Virus record (IMG/VR): IMGVR_UViG_3300004369_000027
Coordinates: 1 to 48,066 of that record
Length of the DNA stretch: 48,066 nucleotides
Reading direction: 5' to 3' (one strand)
Origin: a virus
Taxonomy: Duplodnaviria; Caudoviricetes
Positions 1 to 37,034 of the stretch are shown here, piece by piece. Made by a program: the position numbers and the translations under genes. The notes below the pieces were generated by a model. It ran no database searches. It was not told the origin of the DNA and saw nothing but the letters and a program-made list of their open reading frames with translations. How positions within the stretch are numbered: the first letter of the stretch is position 1; each line of letters begins with the position of its first letter.

Positions 1-2
1 AA

Positions 3-3000
3 AGATTTGGAGGTAAACTAAGATATGCAAGAGGTGGTTCATTAACATCTGCTCAAGATACAGCACAAGCTGTTGATTTGAATAAAGATGTAATGAGAAG
101 AGATGTTAAAAAAGCTTCTGTTGGAGAAGACTTTTTAGCTGGGCTATATGGTGTTGGTGAAGGATTATTAGATACTGTCACTTTTGGATTAACTGATGAA
201 TTAACTGATGCAGGATTTAAAGGATTACAAGCTGCAGCAGGACATGATATTAATTCTGATGAAGCTAAAAGACAAGCTGGTATTGCAGGTTGGGGTAATG
301 TAGCTGGAGCTGTAACAGGAGCTATAATTAATCCTGGAGCAATAGGTAGTGCTGCAGAAGAAGGATTAGAAGGTATTGGTACAGGTATTGAAGGTATTGA
401 TCCTAGTAGTGACATAGCTACTGGTATTGGTACAAGTTTAAAAGGAATGGCAAGCTCAAAAGTGCTAGGTGGTCTTAATGATAAAGATAAAATACCAGAA
501 GGAATGCAAGGATTTTCAAAATTATTTATGGCCAGAAATGGTGGAAGATTTAGATATGGCTATCGTGGAGGTGGACATATGTTAAATCAAAATATGGGAT
601 TAACAGAAATTGATGGCCCTTCACATGAAGATGGTGGTGTTACACTACCTAACAGTGGTGGAAGACCTGATGTTGAAGTAGAAGGCCCAGAAACTATTTA
701 CACTCCAGAAAACTATGTAATGTCTGAAAAGATGAAAGCTTCTAAAGAAGCTCTTGAATATGCAGGTATTACTGGCAAAGCTGCTAGAAGATTAGCAGGT
801 AAAAGCTATGCTGATCTAAGTAAGGCTATTAAATCTAAAGCAGGTGATAAATTAAGACCTGCAGATCCTCTGTCAAAGAAGATGCTAGATAAGGAAATGA
901 AAAGACTTATGATGGCTCATGAATATGACAGAGAAGCTAAAAGAATGAAAGATGAAGCTATGAGGAGCCAAATGATGGGAGGCTCTAATATTATAGCTGA
1001 AACACCAGAGCAAAGAGCTGGAGGATATAATATGTATCCCAATGCTGAAAGTATTGCATTTCCTGGTAGTGGGCCTACATCTGTAGTACCTACATATAAT
1101 AATGACCCAATCATGGTTACTGGTGCTGATGGTAGTCAGCAAATGTTAACTAATGAACCCATTGAAACTGAAGCACCCTTTATTGAACAAAAAATGGCAC
1201 AAGGCGGTAAAATGATTAAAAGAGCTGATGGCTCATATTCTAGAAGAGGATTATGGGATAACATCAGAGCTAACAGAGGTAGTGGTAGAAAACCAACTAA
1301 ACAGATGTTAGAGCAAGAAGCTAAAATTAAAGCAGCAGAAAAAGCCTATGGTGGGTACTATGCTGATGGTGGTAAAATGCCAACAGAAGTACTTAGGTCT
1401 AGACTTGAATCTCATATGTCACCTCAAGAAGCTGACAATTATCTAGAGCAATATGCTGATGGTGGCAGCTTTGATAACCCTGGCTTTAGAGCTTTGCCTG
1501 ATTATGTACAGGCTAAAATTAAATCTAATATGGCATTAGGTGGTTTTATGGGTGACTACATTGATGAAGATGATACCATGGAATATGGTAGTGGTGGTTA
1601 TACTGTAAGAAGGTCTAATGACAGGAAAGGTAAAACCCATGTAGTAACTGGCCCTGATGGAACTAAAAAGTATTTTGGTGATCCTAAGCTAGGAGAAAGA
1701 GGTAAATCTAAATATGGTAAAGATGCTTTCTATGCTAGACATAAAAAGAACTTAGCTAAAAATCCTTACTTTAGAGCTTATGCTAGAGCTACTTGGGAAG
1801 ATGGTGGTTATATGAATATGCTTGACTCTAATGTAGATATGGTAGATATAGAAACTCCTATGTATGAATATGGAGGTTCTATGATGTATGGTCAAGGTGG
1901 TGGTATTCATATTGATCCTAGCAAAAGAGGTACATTTAAAGCACAAGCTTCTAGAATGGGTATGGGTGTGCAAGAAGCAGCTAGAACTATTCTAAATGCA
2001 CCTGAAGGAAAGTATTCTCCTGCTATGAGAAAAAAAGCTAACTTTGCTAGAAACTTTGCAAAAGCTGATGGAGGATATATGTATCAAATGGGAGGTGAGA
2101 TGATGGCTCAACAACCTCAAGGTGGTGGCCAAGAAGAAATTATGCAACAAGTAGTGCAAATGCTACAGCAAGGCATGGCTCCTGAAGAGATTGTGGGACA
2201 ACTAGTTAAAATGGGATTACCCCAAGAACAAGCTATTCAAATAGTACAAATGATTGTTCAACAAATGCAAGGGCAACAACAAGCTCCACAAGAAGCTCCA
2301 CAACAAGCTCCTCCTATGATGAGAGGAGGTGGTTATATGTATCAGATGGGTGGAGAAATGGCTCCACAACAAGCACCTCAACAAGGTGGTAGCCAAGAGC
2401 AGATTATGCAAGCTATTGTTGAAATGTTGCAACAAGGTTTACAACCAGAACAAATTGTAGGAGAACTTGTTAAAATGGGTGTTCCACAAGAAGCTGCTAT
2501 TCAAGCAGTTCAAATGGTTATGCAACAAGTACAACAATCTCAAGGTATGCAGCAACAACAAGCTGCTCCTCCATTTGAGCAAGGTATGATGGGGCAACAA
2601 CAAGCAGCCCCAGCAACTATGAGAGGTGGTGGTAGAATGTATCAAATGGGAGGTTCTTTAGCTGATACATATTTGCAGAACTTAAATAAACCTAAGCCTT
2701 TATTTAGAAATGGTGGTAAGTTGTATTATCAGCAAGATATAAGTTTATTACCTGATAAAGGATATGCAGCAATTAACAAGTTTGAAAATACTATGGGTAC
2801 TTATGATGCTCAAGGTAATCCTATAGGCATGGGAAGGGGAGATCAATATGCTCAAACTGAAGATAAAGGTAAAATAGAATCATTTATTGATTCCTCTATT
2901 GGTAGAGATACTTGGGATAAATTACCTGATGATGTAAAAACTCAAATGTATTCCTTTATGTTTAATACAGGAAAGTATGATGCTGCTTTAAGTGGATTAG

Positions 3001-4175
3001 CTCAAGCAATTAACAACTCTACTGGAGGAGGTGACTTAGGTGATGAGAGAAGAGGGTATACAAGAGATTTTTCAGTTAATGCTATTAAGGGTGCAGATTT
3101 TAATAATCCTAATTTGTATAGTAATTATGTAAATGTTTTAGGAGATCAATATAACTCTATTGCAGATAGTACAAGTAAATTTAATAGTGGTGTAGGTGCT
3201 AATTATGCCCCTATATTAAGAAATAGACCTATATCAATACATAATAATTTATATCCTTCAGGTTATTCTTTTCCTTCATCTACATCTGCTCAACCTGCAG
3301 CAGTAGTACCTCAAGCTGCAGTAGCTCCCACTACTACTCAAACTAGTGCAGGAACTGGTGTTTTAAGGTTGCCAGATCCAGGAACTGATGTTACTTTAAA
3401 CCCTACTCAAATTGCATTAAGAAATTTTAATCAAGCTGGGCCAAGTAGTACTCCTGTAGGTAAACCTGAAAAATATCAACAATGGCAACCTAATACAGCT
3501 CCTATTGTAGCTGGAGGATTAAGTGCTGGTATTACTCCTATTGCTAATTTAGTAGCTTCTATAACTGGAAGAGATACTAGAGCTGCTGCTCCTTTAAAAT
3601 TTGAAAAACCTGATTACACTCCTGTAGCTATACAAAGAGCTGCTGCTAATCAAGCTTTAGCTAATACTAGAGAAGCTCTTAGAAGAGGTGCACCTACACA
3701 AGGTAACTACTTATCTAATTTAGCTATTACAGCTCCATCACTAGCTGCTAATGTAGGTAGAGAAATAGCTAATAAGAGATTTGAAATTGGTAAAACTAGA
3801 GCAGACATAGATATGAGACAACAGCTTGCTAATGACCAAATTAGAAGATTTAATATAATGAATCAAGGTAGAGATCAAGGTGCTAGAGAACAACTAAGAC
3901 TAGAAGCAGCTAAAGGATTCTCTACAATTGGTCAAGGTGTTACTAAAGACTTAGGTGAAACACTATATGAAGCTGATATTCTTAGGAACTTAGAAACTAA
4001 AGATTTTAGTCCTTTCAATTATATTAGAGATGAAAAAGGAAGATTTAAACAAGTTCTATCTCCAAGAGGTGCAGCACTATATAGAGATAATACCACAAAT
4101 AATCAGATTGTAAGAGATAATCAAGGTAATAAATATATGATATTGCCTGGAGGAAGAATTCAACTTATACAATAA
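3..4175 (+). CDS. Large modular putative virion cargo protein, 5'-truncated, with about 20 xxGG motifs and a Q-rich duplication
   Basis: Frame is open from nt 3 (RFGGKLRYARGG...), so the TTG at 78 is probably not the true start. Contains GPSHEDGGV, small basic modules and a C-terminal helical region; lies upstream of the vRNAP gene like crAss-like cargo genes. Confidence 0.75.
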   Translation, partial: RFGGKLRYARGGSLTSAQDTAQAVDLNKDVMRRDVKKASVGEDFLAGLYGVGEGLLDTVTFGLTDELTDAGFKGLQAAAGHDINSDEAKRQAGIAGWGNVAGAVTGAIINPGAIGSAAEEGLEGIGTGIEGIDPSSDIATGIGTSLKGMASSKVLGGLNDKDKIPEGMQGFSKLFMARNGGRFRYGYRGGGHMLNQNMGLTEIDGPSHEDGGVTLPNSGGRPDVEVEGPETIYTPENYVMSEKMKASKEALEYAGITGKAARRLAGKSYADLSKAIKSKAGDKLRPADPLSKKMLDKEMKRLMMAHEYDREAKRMKDEAMRSQMMGGSNIIAETPEQRAGGYNMYPNAESIAFPGSGPTSVVPTYNNDPIMVTGADGSQQMLTNEPIETEAPFIEQKMAQGGKMIKRADGSYSRRGLWDNIRANRGSGRKPTKQMLEQEAKIKAAEKAYGGYYADGGKMPTEVLRSRLESHMSPQEADNYLEQYADGGSFDNPGFRALPDYVQAKIKSNMALGGFMGDYIDEDDTMEYGSGGYTVRRSNDRKGKTHVVTGPDGTKKYFGDPKLGERGKSKYGKDAFYARHKKNLAKNPYFRAYARATWEDGGYMNMLDSNVDMVDIETPMYEYGGSMMYGQGGGIHIDPSKRGTFKAQASRMGMGVQEAARTILNAPEGKYSPAMRKKANFARNFAKADGGYMYQMGGEMMAQQPQGGGQEEIMQQVVQMLQQGMAPEEIVGQLVKMGLPQEQAIQIVQMIVQQMQGQQQAPQEAPQQAPPMMRGGGYMYQMGGEMAPQQAPQQGGSQEQIMQAIVEMLQQGLQPEQIVGELVKMGVPQEAAIQAVQMVMQQVQQSQGMQQQQAAPPFEQGMMGQQQAAPATMRGGGRMYQMGGSLADTYLQNLNKPKPLFRNGGKLYYQQDISLLPDKGYAAINKFENTMGTYDAQGNPIGMGRGDQYAQTEDKGKIESFIDSSIGRDTWDKLPDDVKTQMYSFMFNTGKYDAALSGLAQAINNSTGGGDLGDERRGYTRDFSVNAIKGADFNNPNLYSNYVNVLGDQYNSIADSTSKFNSGVGANYAPILRNRPISIHNNLYPSGYSFPSSTSAQPAAVVPQAAVAPTTTQTSAGTGVLRLPDPGTDVTLNPTQIALRNFNQAGPSSTPVGKPEKYQQWQPNTAPIVAGGLSAGITPIANLVASITGRDTRAAAPLKFEKPDYTPVAIQRAAANQALANTREALRRGAPTQGNYLSNLAITAPSLAANVGREIANKRFEIGKTRADIDMRQQLANDQIRRFNIMNQGRDQGAREQLRLEAAKGFSTIGQGVTKDLGETLYEADILRNLETKDFSPFNYIRDEKGRFKQVLSPRGAALYRDNTTNNQIVRDNQGNKYMILPGGRIQLIQ
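2070..2654 (+). repeat. Intragenic tandem duplication of an ~85-100 aa Q-rich helical unit plus start of a third copy
   Basis: GGYMYQMGGEM..QEEIMQQVVQMLQQGMAPEEIVGQLVKMGLPQEQAIQ..MRG versus GGYMYQMGGEM..QEQIMQAIVEMLQQGLQPEQIVGELVKMGVPQEAAIQ..MRG, followed by GGRMYQMGG. Confidence 0.9.
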
Positions 4176-4180
4176 TAACT

Positions 4181-6955
4181 ATGGCTATACAGTTTGTAAA
4201 ACCTATTGAAACTGAATATGATAGTCAGTTTATGCCCTTGCCGCTGGATACAATATATAAAAATATTGAAACTCAGCAGCAAGGTCTAGATGCAGCTAGA
4301 GCTGATCTAAACAAAACTCAGATTAATCTTAAAGGGCCTTTCTGGGCATCTCAGCAAGGTGCTGAAACTCCTATTAAAGAAAAATACCAATCAGAGGTAG
4401 ATGAGTTAAAAGAAAGGCTAGAAAGAGATAAAGGTAATTACAGTGTAATTGCTAGTAAACTAGCTGAAGTTAATCAGAAGTTTCAAAATGACCCAGAGGT
4501 TCAAAAACTTGTTAGGCAAGAACAACTAGAAAAGAAAAATATTGATTTAGGTAAAATAGCTGGAGGAACTGCTTTTATGCCTAATATACAATATGTAGAT
4601 GAAGCTACTCAAGAGATTAAATTTAAAGACTGGAGAGATATAAACGATGAGGATATTGTTGCACCTGTTGAAGATAAAACTCTTGAGCATGTTAATAAAT
4701 TAGTGGTAGAGAAGTTACAAGAACAATATAGACTAACTTATAATAAACCACAAGCACTTGTTTATAAAGATCCTGTGTCAGGTGCATATGTTGTTTTAGA
4801 AGAACCTGGTACAACATCAAAAAAAGAAATAATAAAAAATAATCCAATAATTAAACAAGCAATTAGAGCTGCTTCAGAATTGATAGCTCTAGATGCTAGT
4901 GGTCAAGGTCGTATTTTGAGAGAGTTTAAAGAAAATCCATTTGTACCACCAGTTACTTTACCTAATGGACAGCAAGTGGTTAAAAGAGGATATAGTAATC
5001 CAGCAGAACTAGAAAAATTTATAGAAAGAGCAGTAGATATAGTTTCATATCAAAGAACAGAAGAAAAAGCTCCAAAGGTTAGAGTTGAAACTGAAGGAAC
5101 TGCTTTAGATGCTGGTAGTGGTGGTAAAGTATCTCCTGGGCCTATTGATTATAATTTTATGGTAGTCAGTGGGCCTACAGTAGATTATACACCTACTTCT
5201 AATTATTCTCAAACATTAGGTGACTTAAGAAGAACTATTGAAGGAAATGAAGCTACTGCATTTAATAACTACATTTTACAAGTAGCTAATTTATCTACTC
5301 AATCACCTAAAGCTAAAGCTGTTTTGGATGGTCTAGATGGTATGCTTAGAGCAGCTCTACAAGGACAAACTATAGATGAAAAGAATAGGTTTATTCAGCA
5401 GTACAAAGAAAATCCTGCTGTTACTTTGTATAGTTTATTTAATGAAGAAGGAAAAGATGAGCAAGCAAGATTATCTGGTTTTGTTACAGAGTTGAAAGAA
5501 ATTAAAGATAATAACGAAACTTTCCAAAATGTTAGAGCAGAGTTTTTTAGATTAATGAATGATTTAGCTAAAGATCCTGACGAAATTACTAGAACTACGG
5601 CTGAACAGTTTTTCAAGATGAATGCTCAAATATCTGATGATAAACTAGTAGCTAATAATTTAGAAAAAATAGAGAACCAAATAGGTAAAACTATTATAAG
5701 TGAAGCATTTAAAAACTCTGAGTTTTTAGCAGAGTTTAATAAAATATATAGTAGCGACCCTAAGCAAGCAAAAGCTTGGAAAGATATTCTACTAGATGAA
5801 AACTCTACTAATGCTAGGATAATGTATGGTGCATTAGGTGGGGATAAACAACAACTAGCTGTTTTAGATCCTTCTTTTTTTGACTATGCTGGTGATGTAT
5901 TTATGGATGCATTAGATCTGCAGTATCAAGGTCAAGCTAGAGAAATTGCTAGAAATTCTGGAGAACAAGCTATTTTTCAAGCTTTAAAAAACTTCAAAGA
6001 AAAAACCAATATAGCAGCTAAAATACAAACAGAAGAATATATTAAAGATGCAACTACAGGTGAAAAAGCTTCTAAGAATTTTAATCCAGTTTTAAATAAG
6101 TTAAAAGAACATTACAACAATGACGAAAACTCTCTTTTGACTTTATTGCAAAATTCAGGATACTCTGTTAGAGAAAAAGGTAAAAGCGAGTTTAACTTAA
6201 ATGATGTTAGAGAAATATTTAATAACTCTATGATTAAATCGCCTGATTTTAAATTAGACGAAAATGAGGAAGTAGAAATATCATCTGTTGATTTAGGTTC
6301 ATTAGGAGAATCTTCTTTGCCTATTATATATTTTACTGTTAAAGACAAAAACGGAAGAAGCTCTTCTTTACCAATAAAATTACCAGAGGTAAATAAACCT
6401 GAATTGGCAAATATTATTGGAGAACTTATTGTTGATAATAATCCTAATGTACAAGATAAAGGTGCATCTATATATGCTAGAGTATTGCTAAATGAGTCAT
6501 ACATATCTTCTGTATCTACAGCTTTAAATATCTCTGATAAATCTGATAGATTAAAAGGAACTATTATTGACTTTAAACTTGGAGAAGAGCCTTATCAGGT
6601 AAAAATAGAAGGTAAAGGTAACTATGTAATTGGTAAACAAACAGCTGATGGAAAGTTTGCTCCTTTGGCTAAAACTACAACTGCAACTGGTACAGAGTTA
6701 CCTGCTAGTGTATCTAGCTTTAGCCAGTTCCTAAGATTTATGGGATATCACCAAATGCAGTATTTATCTAACCAAGGAGATCTTGCTGCTGGAGAAGCTC
6801 AAAGACAAAGAGAAGCTACTTATAGTGGATTGCCTAGTGCTTCACAAATATTTGGTGGACAATCTAGTGGAAGTACAGCTACAACTACAACTGCACCTAC
6901 AGCTGGAGAAGGAGGCTCTACAGGAGGTAGCCTGGGAAAGTTCAGGATGGAGTAG
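4181..6955 (+). CDS. Putative virion/ejection protein, 924 aa; probable N-terminal part of a -1 frameshift fusion
   Basis: Long ORF starting 5 nt after the previous stop, A-rich leader, N-terminal YDSQFMPLP, S/T/G-rich linker ending at the GGGAAAG heptamer. Confidence 0.75.
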   Translation: MAIQFVKPIETEYDSQFMPLPLDTIYKNIETQQQGLDAARADLNKTQINLKGPFWASQQGAETPIKEKYQSEVDELKERLERDKGNYSVIASKLAEVNQKFQNDPEVQKLVRQEQLEKKNIDLGKIAGGTAFMPNIQYVDEATQEIKFKDWRDINDEDIVAPVEDKTLEHVNKLVVEKLQEQYRLTYNKPQALVYKDPVSGAYVVLEEPGTTSKKEIIKNNPIIKQAIRAASELIALDASGQGRILREFKENPFVPPVTLPNGQQVVKRGYSNPAELEKFIERAVDIVSYQRTEEKAPKVRVETEGTALDAGSGGKVSPGPIDYNFMVVSGPTVDYTPTSNYSQTLGDLRRTIEGNEATAFNNYILQVANLSTQSPKAKAVLDGLDGMLRAALQGQTIDEKNRFIQQYKENPAVTLYSLFNEEGKDEQARLSGFVTELKEIKDNNETFQNVRAEFFRLMNDLAKDPDEITRTTAEQFFKMNAQISDDKLVANNLEKIENQIGKTIISEAFKNSEFLAEFNKIYSSDPKQAKAWKDILLDENSTNARIMYGALGGDKQQLAVLDPSFFDYAGDVFMDALDLQYQGQAREIARNSGEQAIFQALKNFKEKTNIAAKIQTEEYIKDATTGEKASKNFNPVLNKLKEHYNNDENSLLTLLQNSGYSVREKGKSEFNLNDVREIFNNSMIKSPDFKLDENEEVEISSVDLGSLGESSLPIIYFTVKDKNGRSSSLPIKLPEVNKPELANIIGELIVDNNPNVQDKGASIYARVLLNESYISSVSTALNISDKSDRLKGTIIDFKLGEEPYQVKIEGKGNYVIGKQTADGKFAPLAKTTTATGTELPASVSSFSQFLRFMGYHQMQYLSNQGDLAAGEAQRQREATYSGLPSASQIFGGQSSGSTATTTTAPTAGEGGSTGGSLGKFRME

Positions 6956-6972
6956 GAGATAATCCTATTCTA
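6934..6972 (+). other. Programmed -1 ribosomal frameshift signal (G GGA AAG, 7-nt spacer, stem-loop)
   Basis: In-frame GGA AAG at 6935-6940 preceded by G6934; hairpin tggagtagga/gataa/tcctattcta at 6948-6972; the -1 frame is open from 6931 to 7887. Confidence 0.75.
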
Positions 6973-7887
6973 GAAAAAGCACAAAGTTTAGTAGGTCTTC
7001 CATATAATTTTCAATGGAGAACAAATAAACAAGCTGGAATGGACTGTTCTGGTGGAGTATGTGAAGTTCTAAAAGCTAAAGGATTAGATCTAGGGTATGC
7101 TGACTCTGAAAGTTTATTTAAAAAGAGTGATGAAAGATTTGGAAAGTTTGCATCTTTTGTAGAGATGATACCTGAGCTAAGAGAAGGTGATCTTATATTT
7201 TTAGATAGTGGCCCTAAAAAATTTGATAAAGGAAGAGAATATGGTATTGACCATGTAGGGGTAGTAGTAGAAGATAACGATGGTTCTCTAAAATTATTTC
7301 AGTTTCAATCTGGGGAAGGAGCAACTTTAAAGCCTTTAAATCAAGCTTTAATTAGATATGATGCTATTGCTAGAAATAGATACATAGGCAGATTTAATGC
7401 TTTAGCTCCAGCTGTAAAAGAAACTGCAAATAACATAGAGCCTTCTAAAAGAGAAGCTTCAGCTAAGTCTTACTTAGAGTCTAAAGGATATTCACCAGCA
7501 GCAGTTGCAGGTATATTAGGTAATATAGCTACAGAAACTGGAGGAACATTTGATCATACATTAAAGCAAAAAAATGGTAATGGTTACGGACTATTTCAGT
7601 TTGACTTTATGAGAAAGTATTATGAAGATTACCTAAAAGAAAATGAAAAAACTGATTCATACCAATCACAAATTGATTACATGGATGATGTAATAAATGG
7701 TAGAGTTAGTATGATGTCTACTGAAAAAAGAAAAACATTACTTGATGTACTCCAAAAATCTAATGACCCAGAAGAAATAGCAAGAGTATTTATGGAAATA
7801 TTTGAAAATCCTGGAGTTCCACATTTAGACAGAAGAACAAAAGCAGCAAAAGAAATCTATACTCGCTATTATGGTAATAGAGGTTAA
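6940..7887 (+). CDS. Peptidoglycan hydrolase: NlpC/P60 domain plus phage-tail-lysozyme-like domain (ORF track start 7039; domain begins upstream, likely entered by frameshift)
   Basis: ILEKAQSLVGLPY...GMDCSG (catalytic Cys), GDLIFL, IDHVGV (His); then AAVAGILGNIATETGG..GYGLFQF..FENPG..RRTKAA typical of Phage_lysozyme2-like domains. Confidence 0.85.
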   Translation, partial: VQDGVGDNPILEKAQSLVGLPYNFQWRTNKQAGMDCSGGVCEVLKAKGLDLGYADSESLFKKSDERFGKFASFVEMIPELREGDLIFLDSGPKKFDKGREYGIDHVGVVVEDNDGSLKLFQFQSGEGATLKPLNQALIRYDAIARNRYIGRFNALAPAVKETANNIEPSKREASAKSYLESKGYSPAAVAGILGNIATETGGTFDHTLKQKNGNGYGLFQFDFMRKYYEDYLKENEKTDSYQSQIDYMDDVINGRVSMMSTEKRKTLLDVLQKSNDPEEIARVFMEIFENPGVPHLDRRTKAAKEIYTRYYGNRG

Positions 7888-30353: not shown

Positions 30354-30781
30354 AATTCTAGCTTTAAATAAACACCAGGATTTTCTTTGTCCACAGAGTA
30401 ATATTTGTTATCCATTTCTAATACATATGGGATTAGGTATTTCATGCTATCATCTGTAATGAAATCATGAGCTACTAATAAATCTTGGATAATCTGTGTG
30501 GCATTATTAAAATCAAATTCAGCCTTTGTTTTGCGAACAAAATGAAATCCTAGTTTAATTGGGTAATTGTCAATAATAGGAAAATCTTTAAGAGATTCTC
30601 TAAATAGATTAGGCTTTGTTTTATACTCTTGAACTTGTTTATCTCTCACAGAGTATTTTAAAATACCTATATCTCTTAAGTATTTTACTACAGTTTTAGA
30701 AGGAAATATCCCCCTTGAAGTCTTCACTTTGGAATTCTTCAAGGAGGGTACATTTCCAGGAATAAAAAATAAAGTTACCAT
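30350..30781 (-). CDS. rusA: RusA-like Holliday junction resolvase
   Basis: IPGNVPSLKN, FDFNNATQIIQDLL..ITDD, ENPGVYL. Confidence 0.75.
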   Translation of the reverse strand: MVTLFFIPGNVPSLKNSKVKTSRGIFPSKTVVKYLRDIGILKYSVRDKQVQEYKTKPNLFRESLKDFPIIDNYPIKLGFHFVRKTKAEFDFNNATQIIQDLLVAHDFITDDSMKYLIPYVLEMDNKYYSVDKENPGVYLKLEL

Positions 30782-31752
30782 AAAACTTGAAAAGTCTCTT
30801 CAGCAGGTTCAGGCTCTGGATTTATACCGCTAAGATAATCAGTAATAATTTTAAGCATAACTTCCTTCTCTTCTTTAGATTTTTGTATTGCATTATTAAA
30901 TACTGGTAAATCTACTTGGTAAAAGAATTGAGGTTTAAGATCAGGTACAGTGACTATTTCAATGTTGTTCTCTTCAGCAAAAGGAAGAAGTATATTTCTA
31001 TATACTTTTCTAAAGCTTTGAGATGGAAAATCTTTATAGTCAAAACCAGCTTGCACAAAGAGTTTAAACAAACCTTCTTTATTTTCTAAGTGGTGGTAAT
31101 TACATTGATCACCTTTATTACGTTCAATACTATTATATAGTCCTGCTAGCCTAGGTAACTGCACAGCTTCAGTTTTAATAGCTAGTATTGCAAGAGGGTT
31201 AAAGATACCAGAATAAAAATATTGATTATTTTTATACATCTGAGCTACACCAAAAATACCACCTCCCCAATAAAAATTACCAGCTCTTGAAACAGTGTGT
31301 AAAACTCCTTGGCTTAGAAAACTAGCAATGGTTAAATCTCCTAAAGCACTCCTTGTATGAGGCCCTCTTCTTAATCTTAAATCTTCACAAGGAGTGAGGT
31401 AGCTATTAAGAACTTCTTTTATTCTAGTTTTAACTACATCATCTTTAAGAGAAATAGGAACATTAGCATCTAAAAAAGTATTAGATAGTTCTAATAAGTA
31501 CTGATTACAAATTTGATCAGCTCTTATTATAGATTGTAAAGATTCATTTTCAGGCCTACCCAAAAACTCTCGAATATACTTATAGCTGCTAGAGGAACGA
31601 TTTGAAGCACTATATACACTAATTGAAGGTATGTAATGATTACCTGAATATACACAATACTCTTGATTATATTTTATTTTAAAGGTATTTGTGTATCTAT
31701 TTTCATGCCCAGAAGTATTTGTAGGGTTTCCTGTAAATAATAAATTTTGCAT
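30775..31752 (-). CDS. Hypothetical protein, 325 aa, last gene of the putative Ubl operon
   Basis: Starts 9 nt after the E1/ThiF stop; no motif recognised. Confidence 0.75.
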   Translation of the reverse strand: MQNLLFTGNPTNTSGHENRYTNTFKIKYNQEYCVYSGNHYIPSISVYSASNRSSSSYKYIREFLGRPENESLQSIIRADQICNQYLLELSNTFLDANVPISLKDDVVKTRIKEVLNSYLTPCEDLRLRRGPHTRSALGDLTIASFLSQGVLHTVSRAGNFYWGGGIFGVAQMYKNNQYFYSGIFNPLAILAIKTEAVQLPRLAGLYNSIERNKGDQCNYHHLENKEGLFKLFVQAGFDYKDFPSQSFRKVYRNILLPFAEENNIEIVTVPDLKPQFFYQVDLPVFNNAIQKSKEEKEVMLKIITDYLSGINPEPEPAEETFQVLW

Positions 31753-31761
31753 AGGTACTAA

Positions 31762-32448
31762 TTAAAAGGTTACAATTTCAGTCATAGTGAAAATATCATT
31801 TTCAATGCAAAATGGTACATCTCTAACAGGCTCTTCGGTTACTAAATTAGCACAAAAATTAGTATATGCAGCTACCATTTTACTTGCTATCATAAAACTA
31901 TTATGTGTAGTGCCTTTAAAACCACAAGGTAATACAGCAGCTTCTGAATCAGGAAATAAAGTTTCTTTATACCTATCTACCTTATCTCTAGTAACTACAT
32001 AAATGTAGAACTGCTCAGCAGTTAATCTACCATCAATTAATATAGGCTCAATTCCTTCAGAAGAATACATATTCATATCTCTAGTAAATAGGTCAAACAT
32101 AACCTGTCTAGCTGCCATGTTATCAAAACAGCTAAACATTACTTCACTAGTTGTAGTTACAGGTGTTACTAAGGCATTATTAGGACTTAATCTATCATAA
32201 CCACTAAACCCAAAAACAACATCTGCAACAGCAGTTATTTTACTTTTACCTATATGTTGAAAACTAAATAGTTGATTTGATAAATTTATCTTATCCACAG
32301 TATCATTATCATAGATACTAATTGATGCTGGTTCTATCCTAGATAGAAGAAAGGTTACCACAGAACCTATACCCCCAGCCCCACCAACAGTAATGTTATG
32401 GGACTGGGCTTTAGGTAACCACACAGCTTCTTTAAATCTGTCTGTCAT
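31762..32448 (-). CDS. E1/ThiF-family adenylyltransferase (Ubl-activating enzyme-like)
   Basis: VGGAGGIGS, YDNDTVDKINLSNQ, GKSK, CFDNMAAR, IDGR, candidate catalytic Cys175 in LPCGFK; no CxxC zinc pairs. Confidence 0.9.
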   Translation of the reverse strand: MTDRFKEAVWLPKAQSHNITVGGAGGIGSVVTFLLSRIEPASISIYDNDTVDKINLSNQLFSFQHIGKSKITAVADVVFGFSGYDRLSPNNALVTPVTTTSEVMFSCFDNMAARQVMFDLFTRDMNMYSSEGIEPILIDGRLTAEQFYIYVVTRDKVDRYKETLFPDSEAAVLPCGFKGTTHNSFMIASKMVAAYTNFCANLVTEEPVRDVPFCIENDIFTMTEIVTF

Positions 32449-33713
32449 TAGTTGTTTGATTTGTTAAAAGAATTATTCCAAGAAGTAGTATCGTCATTAT
32501 CTTCAAGTACATCTGTAAAATAATCAGCTATAACTGTATAAAGAAATTCAGCAGCACTACTTTTAACATCATAAGCAACTTCTAAACAATACTCCATTAC
32601 ATCAGTAAGAAAATCAGCCATAGAATTGTTATTGATTAGCTGTCCTTTTTTAATAAAGAACACCTCTTTGTAACAATCTTCAATCTTATCTTCTATATGA
32701 AATGCATAAGCATCTTGATCCATACCACTAAACTTAGCATCAAGCTTAACTAAAGCTTGTTCAAAGCTATCAGTACTTTTATATGCAGGATCTAAGAACA
32801 TCAATTTACACAAAAAGAGTTCCATCTCTTTTTTGGTAAATGTGACTTTGTTATTAGTTACAAATGATTTATCATCAAAAAGTTTAGGCAATGTAGATTG
32901 GCTTTGATTATAAGTTGGCTTATTATAAGTATCTATATCATAATCATCTCCATAGTTATAATTACCATTATTATAATTATAGGTACCATATCTATTGTAG
33001 GCTGTATAACTTTCTTTAATTGCTTTATCAGTCATAGACTCAAAGAAAGTATCCATCTCTTTAACAATGTCTAAGTCTAATGTTATTACATCAAAAGTAG
33101 ATACTTCTTCTTCTTGATTAGCAGTAAGAGGAATCCAGTTGCCATCAGAATCTTTGTATTCTTTAGCATATCTTTTTGTTTTATTATTAATAGGATAAGC
33201 AGCTTTGGCTACCATTTCACCTTTGTTATTAACAATTAAAGAGATACAAAAATTAGAAAGCTTAGCATACTCATTTAAAGTAGAACTGTCTGTACCACTA
33301 AAGAATACTCCCATATTAACATGAGAGTGAATAATACCCATTTTACAATCTTCTAGCTCTGGGTTATTATCATAAGCATCAATGATCCTTTCATCTACTT
33401 CAAATTCAGTATAGGTAGGCTCACCTTTATGCATAGGCAAAATGTCTATAGCTCTAATGCTAAAGGTTTCAGGGTTAATAGGATGCCCTTCAGTTTTACA
33501 AAATACAATACCAGACCATTCTACTGTGTTAATTTTATGACACAAGAACCAAATTTTTGATATTATCTCTGGAGAGATAAACATCTTCGGTCTGTAAACT
33601 GGTGTAGTGGTTTGTAAATAATTGTTGTAAAGTTTCCCTTGTGAAGGATAAGAGTTCTTCACTGCAGAATTCTGTTGTGATTTCTGCTTGTTGATCAATG
33701 ATTGTGGCTTCAT
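32448..33713 (-). CDS. JAB/MPN+ (JAMM) metallopeptidase with a long acidic C-terminal region (alternative start 33584)
   Basis: VEWSG plus exact HxH-x7-S-x2-D motif HSHVNMGVFFSGTD (33288-33329); stop overlaps the E1 start (TAATG). Confidence 0.9.
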   Translation of the reverse strand: MKPQSLINKQKSQQNSAVKNSYPSQGKLYNNYLQTTTPVYRPKMFISPEIISKIWFLCHKINTVEWSGIVFCKTEGHPINPETFSIRAIDILPMHKGEPTYTEFEVDERIIDAYDNNPELEDCKMGIIHSHVNMGVFFSGTDSSTLNEYAKLSNFCISLIVNNKGEMVAKAAYPINNKTKRYAKEYKDSDGNWIPLTANQEEEVSTFDVITLDLDIVKEMDTFFESMTDKAIKESYTAYNRYGTYNYNNGNYNYGDDYDIDTYNKPTYNQSQSTLPKLFDDKSFVTNNKVTFTKKEMELFLCKLMFLDPAYKSTDSFEQALVKLDAKFSGMDQDAYAFHIEDKIEDCYKEVFFIKKGQLINNNSMADFLTDVMEYCLEVAYDVKSSAAEFLYTVIADYFTDVLEDNDDTTSWNNSFNKSNN

Positions 33714-34899
33714 AATTTATGGGGTTGTTTCTAAAGGTTTTAAAACGTGCATTCCTTATAGCTATATCTAATTGATGTTTATGTAATCTATCATCGTACT
33801 GTTCAGTATTATTTGTTTGTACATTACCATCAGAATCAGTATAACCATAATAAGTAGAATATGGAGCTAAGGCTCTAGCTAAATTAAGTGCATTTTGAAT
33901 AGTCACTTCTACACTACTACCTGAATTATTGTAATTTAGTAAAGGAATAAATAAATCAGGATTTTCTTTGTAGGTATTGCAAAATTTATTAAAATCACTT
34001 ATAATAGTGGCAGGGTCTATTGACTGCCTTGATACTACAGTTAAATTTCTGTTGTTAGTTGTTGATAAATGAATATAAGGAGTGCCTTCAATAGATTCCC
34101 ATTCTACAAAATTGTTTATTTGATATAAAAACAAATCAAACCTATCCTCATTAAAGTCTTCCCTAAACTCAGAGATAAGTGCAGTTAAATCAGTACTGCC
34201 TGTGCAAAATGATGATACATCAAATAAACTTTCTAAATTCCTAGAGTTTAAGTGAGAATGTCTGTAACCATTTTTTACATCATTAAAAGACATTTTAGCT
34301 CTAAAGCCTTGAAATTCTTTTAATAAGCAAGATTCATTAAAGGTTAGTACACAATATAATTCTTCTATTTCTCTACTTTCTTGTTTAGTATTAGTAATAG
34401 TTATGTGTGGGTACCTAATAAGTAGATCTAAAAATCCATTTAAGTTAAGTTGTAAATCATAATTCTCACCATAAACTTCATCCAATACAGGTTTTAGTTT
34501 TGTTAAACCAAAATCTTTAAACTTATTAGCAATTGCAAACTTAATATTCTCACTCCATAAAGTTTCTAAGTTGCTAAAATCAACTGCTTCATGTGATAAT
34601 ATAATATAATCATCTGCATCGTTTAGAGATAGTAAGTAGTCTTCATCGTAGTTATAAAGACTTTTTATATTATTATTTCGAGGATTTACAATTACATCAT
34701 AACTATTAAATATCCCATCTATATTCTCAGGATCTACAAAATAAAAATGATTGTACATACCAATGCCAGAAGATATATAGTTTTCTCCTTCAAGTTGGTT
34801 AGCAGGCCTAACTATCACATTTGGATAATTTTTAACTACCAGATCTCTAAATGAAGTTACATTACTAGCAGTTGATAATAATTTTTCTAATTCTGTCAT
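33535..34899 (-). CDS. Putative E2/UBC-like conjugating protein, 454 aa
   Basis: IRYP..YRHSHL..FCTG (Cys232)..WESIEGTPY recalls the HPN/HPH..C signature; lies between Ubl and JAB genes. Fold assignment is inference. Confidence 0.55.
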   Translation of the reverse strand: MTELEKLLSTASNVTSFRDLVVKNYPNVIVRPANQLEGENYISSGIGMYNHFYFVDPENIDGIFNSYDVIVNPRNNNIKSLYNYDEDYLLSLNDADDYIILSHEAVDFSNLETLWSENIKFAIANKFKDFGLTKLKPVLDEVYGENYDLQLNLNGFLDLLIRYPHITITNTKQESREIEELYCVLTFNESCLLKEFQGFRAKMSFNDVKNGYRHSHLNSRNLESLFDVSSFCTGSTDLTALISEFREDFNEDRFDLFLYQINNFVEWESIEGTPYIHLSTTNNRNLTVVSRQSIDPATIISDFNKFCNTYKENPDLFIPLLNYNNSGSSVEVTIQNALNLARALAPYSTYYGYTDSDGNVQTNNTEQYDDRLHKHQLDIAIRNARFKTFRNNPINYEATIIDQQAEITTEFCSEELLSFTRETLQQLFTNHYTSLQTEDVYLSRDNIKNLVLVS

Positions 34900-34911
34900 A
34901 TTTTGGTTTTT

Positions 34912-34958
34912 AAAAAAAATAAGAAAGGGTGAGGTAATAAATACCCCACCCTATTCTT
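34912..34958 (-). terminator. Intrinsic terminator/attenuator between the Ubl and E2-like genes
   Basis: - strand reads aagaatagggtggggta/tttat/tacctcaccctttctt followed by attttttt. Confidence 0.7.
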
Positions 34959-34967
34959 ACATCATAG

Positions 34968-34975
34968 CAAAGCTA
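34968..34975 (-). promoter_or_regulatory. TAnnTTTG -7 element
   Basis: - strand tagctttg just after the Ubl stop codon. Confidence 0.45.
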
Positions 34976-34979
34976 CTAC

Positions 34980-35378
34980 TTAGGAAATTACTCCTTCAGC
35001 ACGTAGTTGGTCTAAGTCATCTTCCTCATCTTCAGAAAGATTAGAGTTATCAGCTACATTACCAGCTAATACATCTTCAAAAAGGTTTTGAAGTTTAGTA
35101 CGCAACTCTCTGATTTGAGAATCAGTGTAACGAGTACCATTATCATTGCTACCAGAAGCAATTTTCTTCATGCTCAAGATAACAGTAAAGTTACCTTCAG
35201 GAAGTTGAGCTTCTGGAGACTCCAAAGATACTCTGGTTTCACGAACAATAGCTTTCATATTTCCAATGTCAGAAATATGAGAAGACAAATCAGTTTGAAG
35301 TTCACTCCAAGTGGTAGCAGCAGATTCTACACTTTTAGCACGATCTGATTGAGAAGAAATAACACGAATTGTACGCAT
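34980..35378 (-). CDS. Putative ubiquitin-like (beta-grasp) protein with Gly76 and a 56-aa C-terminal extension
   Basis: RTIRVIS/AKSVES strands, TWSELQTDL helix, final strand FTVILS, then KKIASG76; followed by E2-like, JAB and E1 genes. Confidence 0.65.
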   Translation of the reverse strand: MRTIRVISSQSDRAKSVESAATTWSELQTDLSSHISDIGNMKAIVRETRVSLESPEAQLPEGNFTVILSMKKIASGSNDNGTRYTDSQIRELRTKLQNLFEDVLAGNVADNSNLSEDEEDDLDQLRAEGVIS

Positions 35379-35380
35379 AA

Positions 35381-36406
35381 TTAAAAAATTAAAGGATTAA
35401 AAATTAGGGCTTTAATTAAAGATTTGGATACTTCCTTTCCATGGTTTTTTACTAGGTCAGAAAAGTCTTTTGATTTATATTCATCGGGTATTTCTATTTG
35501 ATTTAACTGAAATTTAGAAGCTAGCTCATTGCCATACTTTCTACCCCAGTTAACTTCTTTATTGAAGTCATTATCATACAGTAAATACACTTTATCAAAC
35601 CTTTTCTTCAGCTGATTAACAATATGAGGCTTAGGATCAGTTGTTTCAGCTTGAAGAGATACAGAAGGAACACCAGTTAATTCTGTAAGTGACATAACAT
35701 CTTTTAAAGATTTAGTGATTATGAGCTTTTCACCTCTCTTTGGCAATTGTGTCCATCCTTGCCAAACAGATTTATCAACATTTGATATAAATCTTAATTG
35801 TTTGTTATAGGGTTGATATATTTTATATGTATAGATTCTATCCTTGCTCTCTAGATAAGCATATGCAGGGTTCTTTGAGTTATCTACAGGTATTATTAAA
35901 TCATTTAAGAAAATGAATTTACAACTAAAAACATTATACCTATTTAATGTAGATTTACTTATCCCAAACTGCCCCCAGAAATGTATATCTCTTGGGGTGA
36001 ACTCTTGCATTTTTATGCCTATGTGTACTCTAGATTTATCTTTGTAGTCAATGTCTTTGGGGATTTTAATTTTCTTTTTTCTGCCCACTATATCACTGTC
36101 AATAAGTCCAAAGTCATTAGCTACTTTTCGCAAAGCACCATAGTAATCTAGTCCAAATAACCTAGAAACAAATACAAAACAATCTCCTTTTTCTTTTGTA
36201 GCAAAATCTCTGAATAGAAGTTTATCCAAGGTGGATGCATAAAACACACTAAAAGAAGCAATATCATCCTCTCTAAGAGGGCTGCATATAGCAGTATTGA
36301 GTTGCAAATTTGGTATGTAGAATGCAAAGATTTGATACTCTGAAACTCTATCTAATATAAGTTCAGATGATAATATGTTATAGTCTAAAGAATTAAGATT
36401 AATCAT
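35381..36406 (-). CDS. DNA primase (crAss-type, TOPRIM)
   Basis: SPLRED..SFS..FRDFAT..GDCF N-terminal domain; LIITKSLKDVM and LYDND TOPRIM motifs; KDFSD. Confidence 0.85.
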   Translation of the reverse strand: MINLNSLDYNILSSELILDRVSEYQIFAFYIPNLQLNTAICSPLREDDIASFSVFYASTLDKLLFRDFATKEKGDCFVFVSRLFGLDYYGALRKVANDFGLIDSDIVGRKKKIKIPKDIDYKDKSRVHIGIKMQEFTPRDIHFWGQFGISKSTLNRYNVFSCKFIFLNDLIIPVDNSKNPAYAYLESKDRIYTYKIYQPYNKQLRFISNVDKSVWQGWTQLPKRGEKLIITKSLKDVMSLTELTGVPSVSLQAETTDPKPHIVNQLKKRFDKVYLLYDNDFNKEVNWGRKYGNELASKFQLNQIEIPDEYKSKDFSDLVKNHGKEVSKSLIKALIFNPLIF

Positions 36407-36410
36407 AATA

Positions 36411-36442
36411 TAATAAGGGGGATTGTTAATCCCCCATTATTA
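36411..36442 (-). terminator. Stem-loop, possible terminator
   Basis: taataagggggatt/gtt/aatcccccattatta; the U-tract is weak. Confidence 0.55.
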
Positions 36443-36461: not shown

Positions 36462-37034
36462 TTAGATAATATCACTAGAAGCAGCAAAACTTCCAGCATT
36501 CATAGCTGGAGCATCTTCTTCTATTCTAGTCATCTGGTCAATATTATTGGCTTTCAGACGAGTATCAGACAGCAGCACACTTTCTGCTTCAATAAAAGGA
36601 ACATAGCTTCTTACTTGTAGATACTTCTTAGGATACAAAGTAGTACCATAAGTACAATACACTCTAACCATTACTGAAGAAATCTTAGGTTGGATTAGCT
36701 GTAAGCATCCATCAAGCAATTCTTTAGGTGAAGTAAAAGCAGGAAACTGATAAGTTTCACCTAAGAAACAATGTACCAAATGCTTAAGAGCTTTACCTTG
36801 TTTCTCCAAGTCCTTAGCAAATGTATCTCTTGTAGAATCTAGATACCAAAAGGCCAAGTTAATCTCAGCACCATTAGAATCTTTAAAGAATAGCTTATAG
36901 TCAGGAGCATTACCAGCTTCTGTCTTAGGCTCAATTCTATCAAGTCTAACATTTCTTACTACACCAGCTTGTCCACCATTAAAGATTTGAACATTACTAC
37001 CTCCATCAAAGGAATTGTCATTTAGATTAATCAT
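36462..37034 (-). CDS. Putative single-stranded DNA-binding protein
   Basis: Beta-rich core, acidic tail (EEDAP..SDII), position between AAA ATPase and primase; inference. Confidence 0.5.
   Translation of the reverse strand: MINLNDNSFDGGSNVQIFNGGQAGVVRNVRLDRIEPKTEAGNAPDYKLFFKDSNGAEINLAFWYLDSTRDTFAKDLEKQGKALKHLVHCFLGETYQFPAFTSPKELLDGCLQLIQPKISSVMVRVYCTYGTTLYPKKYLQVRSYVPFIEAESVLLSDTRLKANNIDQMTRIEEDAPAMNAGSFAASSDII

Follow-up and report, generated by a model that had tools for sequence, protein, structure and literature searches.

A predicted ubiquitin-like conjugation cassette behind the primase gene of crAss-like phages

The stretch of DNA analysed here (the window) is the IMG/VR virus record IMGVR_UViG_3300004369_000027, a linear record of 48,066 nucleotides (nt) that covers about 38% of a genome. 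Its crAss-like features are a crassvirus cargo-protein domain, a plus strand with very large open reading frames (ORFs) and a minus strand that carries a replication block. A preliminary description, made from the letters alone, had placed five contiguous co-oriented genes after the primase gene of this block and read them as a ubiquitin-like protein (Ubl) conjugation system. All five were recovered on the minus strand with the same boundaries, and are listed here with their products in amino acids (aa).

35381..36406, minus strand: DNA primase gene, upstream context (PHROG 12622, E 5e-65)
34980..35378, minus strand: putative Ubl precursor gene, 132 aa (predicted fold)
34916..34952, minus strand: terminator-like hairpin and U tract in the Ubl-E2 gap
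33535..34899, minus strand: E2-like gene, 454 aa (predicted fold and invariant residues)
32448..33713, minus strand: putative JAB/MPN+ metalloprotease gene, 421 aa (weak Prok-JAB match and motif residues)
31762..32448, minus strand: putative minimal E1 gene, ThiF/MoeB/UBA5-like, 228 aa (Pfam ThiF)
30775..31752, minus strand: orphan gene, 325 aa (conserved by position)

The primase stop codon is separated from the Ubl ATG by 2 nt. The Ubl and E2 genes are 80 nt apart, the JAB and E1 genes overlap by 1 nt, and 9 nt lie between the E1 and orphan genes. With first-ATG calling, the E2 and JAB frames share 179 nt (window positions 33535-33713; about 10-180 nt in relatives), an overlap for which an alternative JAB start or a frameshift fusion may account.

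Loci were picked by a match to the E1, and 114 were examined. L113 (other arrangement) and L019, L093, L099 and L109 (which end before the tag gene) were left out. The order Ubl-E2-JAB-E1 was kept in 109/109 informative crAss-like loci, in 102 by profile; the other 7 showed E2-JAB-E1, and a divergent ORF upstream of it was assigned from its position and Gly motif. The 109 are not independent cases, because many are near-identical gut phages. The synteny that the preliminary description had looked for in other phages was thus found, and the constant order rules out chance clustering of the five genes. Cultured carriers were crAss001 (gp79-76 correspond to Ubl-E2-JAB-E1, with gp75 at the orphan position), DAC15 and Fpv3; the annotations of crAss001 gp79-75 read hypothetical, metalloprotease and thiamine. 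The E1 was found in 80 of 50,697 phage records, and the primase in 130. When 185,579 prokaryote species genomes were scanned with one motif, 10 pattern matches were obtained, which came down to 4 loci, one spurious. Of the three true loci, two (L116 and L117) have phage-type genes around them, and the third, L118, is a contig of 2.7 kb. No E2 matches were found on plasmids. The cassette is widespread, and hence not unique to the window.

Two of the prokaryote loci had features of their own. L116, a 373-kb contig from a Puia metagenome-assembled genome (MAG), carries the full cassette within a crAss-like replication block and is possibly an integrated crAss-like prophage. On L117 (positions 1-7700, Bacilli MAG) a long CRISPR-like repeat array adjoins a truncated Ubl gene, probably in a chimeric assembly.

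The AlphaFold (AF2) model of the Ubl, built from 20 sequences, has a beta-grasp at residues 1-70, a flexible stretch near Gly76 and two tail helices; the helical tail after Gly76 is 56 aa long in the window. A VIA search with this model returned FAT10 at the top (Z 9.5, root-mean-square deviation (rmsd) 1.9, 72 residues aligned) and ubiquitin at Z 9.3. Beta-grasp proteins made up 50/50 of the matches listed, nearly all of them ubiquitin-type. Foldseek gave ISG15 and ubiquitin matches (best E 1.5e-3, none reaching E 1e-3), and sequence profiles against Pfam and PDB gave chance-level matches only. AF2, VIA and Foldseek agree with the beta-grasp fold predicted earlier for the ORF at 34980. The Gly76 column was Gly in 100/100 distinct locus sequences, and K-[SA]-G was present in 119/120 further homologues listed (221 were found). 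The tail past Gly76 was 1-217 residues long in 100 distinct relatives. A zero-length tail was never found; because no relative ends at the Gly, the Ubl is, to judge by its sequence, a precursor that would need JAB cleavage.

The tails differ between loci. Three of the shortest tails (L055, L080 and L101) are caused by an insertion directly behind the Gly, and two of these loci show an HNH-like ORF; the tail persists there as its own ORF, which hints at an independent function. Long lysine-rich tails in L016, L021, L025, L032 and L035 could bind nucleic acid and recall ubiquitin-ribosomal protein fusions. A SAP/HeH-like look of some tails was discarded, as none of the tail segments tested had Pfam support.

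The E2-like protein was modelled by AF2 with a predicted local distance difference test (pLDDT) score of 86.9. A predicted core of the UBC superfamily lies at about residues 121-285, flanked by fast-evolving N- and C-terminal domains. In VIA, this core matched the Tsg101 UEV domain (Z 6.2, rmsd 3.8, 121 residues aligned), BubB (Z 5.6), Ubc9 (Z 5.3), Cap2 (Z 4.6) and RWD domains; matches of UBC, UEV and RWD type predominated. Sequence profiles against Pfam and PDB gave chance matches only, and the ESM Atlas gave no usable match for the E2 core or the orphan. The family comprised 3,288 clusters at 50% identity; H214, S215, H216, C232 and E268 were invariant in 136/136 new, distant representatives examined. 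The conserved histidines lie upstream of C232 and none is conserved downstream. The UBC fold that had been proposed for the ORF at 33535 is consistent with these data, with moderate scores and at moderate confidence.

The JAB protein matched Prok-JAB at E 0.0025, below the cut-off, and AMSH-LP/Rpn11 weakly (E 0.26-1.1). The JAMM motif read earlier in the window is conserved in the family: E65, H129, H131, S139 and D142 were kept in 50-52 of 54 sequences, and the misses were mostly gaps from split genes. Insertions at conserved sites split the JAB gene in L017, L022, L023, L027, L038, L099 and L102, and a group I intron was confirmed within that of L022. The C-terminal region is variable and acidic.

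The E1 matched Pfam ThiF at E 2e-13, above the cut-off, which upholds the ThiF-type assignment made earlier. The best solved relative of its profile was UBA5 (E 2e-12), the likeness covering the nucleotide-binding half only. C175 was present in 25/25 aligned sequences (53/55 after dereplication). The protein has a single domain, with no CxxC zinc pairs and no rhodanese domain. The key residues named in the preliminary description (Ubl G76, E1 C175 and E2 C232) were correct, and its claim that the phage carries its own complete set of writer and eraser enzymes is supported, as a predicted function, by the Ubl, E2, JAB and E1 folds or residues and by gene order. By analogy with characterised systems, protein conjugation by the cassette is considered quite probable.

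The activated tag could instead go to a non-protein acceptor (lipid, nucleotide or small molecule), or serve as a sulfur carrier via host desulfurases. The minimal ThiF/MoeB-like E1 would fit this, as would the trimming of Gly-ended carriers by JAB proteins in sulfur pathways (PMC1779556) and the small-molecule-type amide ligases that phage phi14:2 carries in the same slot. Five whole relatives were checked, because the window covers only part of the genome. Rhodanese, ThiG, MoaE and PP-loop thiolase were each found in 0/5, with positive controls; cysteine desulfurase and cysteine synthase families were not searched. The absence of sulfur-transfer genes first noted in the window therefore holds for these four families. 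A partner with a predicted UBC fold and an invariant Cys is always present and the Ubl fold matches are almost all ubiquitin-type, both of which speak against an acceptor other than protein; we regard one as improbable. Host enzymes could substitute for missing partners of a sulfur carrier, and that role is unlikely. A thiamine-biosynthesis annotation of the cassette was rejected.

The hairpin and U tract 3' of the Ubl gene in the window had a z of -4.2. A terminator-like element followed the Ubl gene in 72/88 distinct loci, compared with 2/88 after E2, 0/88 after JAB, 0/84 after E1 and 4/88 in shuffles. Codon use of the Ubl gene was distinct (CGT 7, AGA 2, no ATA), its neighbours favouring AGA. 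From this hairpin and codon use, it is likely that more Ubl than enzyme is produced. A sigma-70 promoter scan stayed at chance level (42 vs 36). RNA data, from contigs only, included a 15-kb lake metatranscriptome contig of a relative that spans the module; other contigs were patchy. Another terminator-like hairpin was seen at window positions 36417-36435, between the ORF at 36462 and the primase gene.

An abundant Ubl, as terminator and codon bias suggest, would also suit a decoy that, together with the JAB, jams or reverses host Bil or CBASS conjugation, with ligation by the phage secondary. Phage deubiquitinase domains have been proposed as anti-Bil measures (10.1101/2023.09.04.556158). A decoy leaves the invariant E1 and E2 cysteines unexplained, and the cores of Ubl and JAB show conservation rather than diversification. 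Jamming of host Ubl immunity, offered as a role in the preliminary description, found no specific support, and we consider a decoy very improbable.

Bacterial Ubl conjugation is known as a host defence, and Bil (BilABCD, types I and II) is an anti-phage system of this kind (10.1101/2023.09.26.559546; 10.1101/2023.09.04.556158). The phage cassette resembles Bil in the gene order Ubl-E2-deubiquitinase-E1 with a JAB protease as deubiquitinase, in a Cys in both E1 and E2, and in having no RING E3; type II BilA needs trimming past its Gly, as the phage Ubl precursor would. The Bil E1 is of IAD-AAD-CYS build with a four-Cys zinc site, whereas the phage E1 is a 228-aa single domain with no CxxC. The Bil E2 has its His after the Cys, whereas the phage E2 has His-Ser-His before it and large flanking domains. 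The cassette is moreover phage-encoded, with a Ubl tail of up to 217 aa and an extra orphan gene. Membership in Bil was rejected: the order is shared, but the E1 domains, the downstream E2 His and the bacterial anti-phage context are not.

Bub (types I and II, formerly 6E/DUF6527) is described as using oxyesters on Tyr and Ser, gene fusions and BubE (10.1101/2024.11.21.623953). Likenesses are the minimal E1, the cutting of a long Ubl precursor by JAB at a Gly inside it, and the match of the phage E2 model to BubB. The phage proteins keep C175 and C232 where Bub has Tyr (E1) and Ser (E2), and the phage genes are separate, with no BubAB, BubCD or BubBD fusions and no DUF6527 match. Bub membership was rejected on these conserved cysteines and on the lack of BubE/DUF6527 and of fusions. 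A Ser may nevertheless play a part in the phage E2, given the invariant Ser215 beside His216.

UBA5, of the eukaryotic UBA5-UFC1-UFM1 pathway, is the nearest solved E1 relative and is likewise a minimal E1 with a crossover-loop Cys. UFM1 is a single-Gly tag made as a precursor. The likeness is limited to the nucleotide-binding half, and there is no evidence of direct descent. PRTRC systems, which we take to be operon type 6d, also have separate Ubl, JAB, E1 and E2 genes. They add a fast-diverging extra protein and occur in Bacteroides (PMC1779556). The phage E1 scored 33.4 bits on TIGR03736 (cut-off 144.75), other PRTRC models gave no match to the phage proteins at E<=1, and the 6d E2 His lies downstream of the Cys, in contrast to that of the phage. 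PRTRC membership was rejected on the family cut-offs. Because the Bil E1 and E2 features, the Bub residues and the PRTRC cut-offs all fail, the cassette is, by its predicted proteins, a phage-borne class of its own.

We favour, at a probability of about 0.55, a phage-run Ubl cascade that would tag host proteins, with targets chosen by the E2 flanks and the orphan; sequence, models and analogy all enter into this reading. Termination at the hairpin after the Ubl gene would let the tag exceed the enzymes. JAB would cut the precursor after Gly76, by analogy with Bil and Bub and because every Ubl relative extends past the Gly. The E1, which is probably a homodimer, would then adenylate Gly76 and hold the Ubl as a thioester on Cys175. 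From there the Ubl would move to Cys232 of the E2, whose upstream His-Ser-His is likened to the E2 His motif. The E2 flanks and the orphan, as a probable E3-like adaptor, would steer the tag onto host lysines, which is the weakest step, and JAB would likely also take the tag off targets. The chemistry is modelled on Bil and Bub with predicted folds; gene order, residues, hairpin and rates are observed.

The host-directed cascade is favoured by catalytic residues kept across deep divergence and by contrasting rates of change. Identity to L005, the closest relative, was 99-100% for primase, Ubl core, E1, JAB core and resolvase, 86-96% for the E2 domains and 90% for the orphan. Synonymous divergence was similar across genes, and the nonsynonymous share was far higher in E2 (Fisher p 2e-7) and in the orphan (41 nonsynonymous to 6 synonymous changes, Fisher p 1e-9). 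In four non-independent pairs, the contrast had Fisher p 3e-4 to 1e-11. The nonsynonymous rate (pN) of E2 and orphan was near the synonymous rate (pS), with an orphan pN/pS of about 0.9-1.7 among closest relatives, and primase, Ubl, E1 and resolvase were under strong purifying selection. The orphan is very divergent; its alignment (A4) has no invariant column and no invariant Ser or His, and it gave no meaningful family match. Its homology to crAss001 gp75 is one of position only, because the orphan profile did not match gp75. The orphan is a candidate substrate adaptor.

The slot after the primase is exchangeable. In phi14:2 (gp48-52, L120:8016-13660) it holds GGCT, ATP-grasp, COOH-NH2 ligase, GATase and amidoligase genes, three of the five matches being below the Pfam cut-off; this set resembles phiEco32-like amide-ligase genes. 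In IAS virus and cr116_1 it holds genes annotated as rII-type (rIIA/rIIB) lysis protectors, and in cr4_1 and crAss002 neither of these sets.

This exchange bears on the possibility that the same chemistry acts on phage targets, the tag regulating or protecting replication, transcription or virion-RNA-polymerase proteins. The cassette lies within the replication block, 2 nt past the primase, in a position that is stable across gut, freshwater and marine lineages, and the middle genes of crAss001 have mostly replication functions (PMC8375218). However, it is absent from phi14:2, IAS, cr4_1 and crAss002. No ThiF-family gene was found anywhere in these four, which means that replication in crAss-like phages does not depend on it. 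The neighbouring primase and resolvase are strongly conserved, in contrast to the fast-changing E2 and orphan. As the module is lineage-restricted and swappable, a host-facing role is favoured over the replisome regulation suggested in the preliminary description, and phage targets are considered rather unlikely.

Several observations weigh against the host-directed cascade. The stable seat inside the replication block is one. Cassette tree distances correlate with those of the primase (rho 0.46-0.59), which is expected for a phage-directed function too. pN was significantly above pS in none of the four pairs (p>=0.13), so relaxed constraint also fits the fast genes. For the E2 core, the best Z of 6.2 is below the tool bar of 8, Mediator subunits score as high as UBC-type folds in VIA, the top fold matches include catalytically dead UEV/RWD domains, and Foldseek against PDB gave no match at E<=1e-3. 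The E1 family has Gly or Asn where the UBA5 nucleotide-binding loop has Arg, and 16/88 loci lack a terminator after the Ubl gene. Adenylation, cleavage, conjugation and targets are all predictions from sequence, models and analogy.

In L113:2730-6606 (PV764601.1, a Xanthomonas jumbo phage), a related E1 is accompanied by a 140-aa ORF whose last residues are Gly-Gly and by one of 892 aa that carries a His-Pro-His...Cys motif close to its end; no JAB was seen in the vicinity. Its type of E1 is also present in 4 near-identical Xanthomonas/Erwinia records. This arrangement is possibly a second phage Ubl system.

No description of the cassette was found in the searched literature, which covered few subscription-journal papers and included the accessible parts of PMC10172136 and PMC7824862. 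Term searches gave no mention in the accessible text of PMC6235969 or in the main text of PMC7886860, as far as accessible, whose supplement has only the labels 'ThiF family' and 'MPN, metalloprotease'. The cassette thus appears to be real, widespread and undescribed in searchable literature. A phage Ubl system named 'Pub' in Pseudomonas Otagovirus phages is reportedly the subject of a preprint; searches did not confirm it, and it could lower the novelty. In phiPsa374, checked as Otagovirus-related, there was no ThiF or family-E1 match. New here are the terminator after the tag gene, the fast change of E2 and orphan and the exchangeable slot after the primase.

The wider proposal, that a large crAss-like branch including Steigviridae common in the human gut runs a complete host-directed Ubl cascade in which the E2 family is undescribed and a fast-evolving adaptor of non-RING type picks the targets, is tentative, and we put it slightly below an even chance. 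It can be tested directly, since the residues for mutagenesis have been named and three carriers (crAss001, DAC15 and Fpv3) are in culture. Both the minimal E1 and the new E2 family bear on the origin of ubiquitin systems and would offer a compact orthogonal ligation kit. If the proposal is true, a complete cascade on the phage side, in a family abundant in the gut, would add a new layer to host takeover and mirror the Bil immunity of bacteria.

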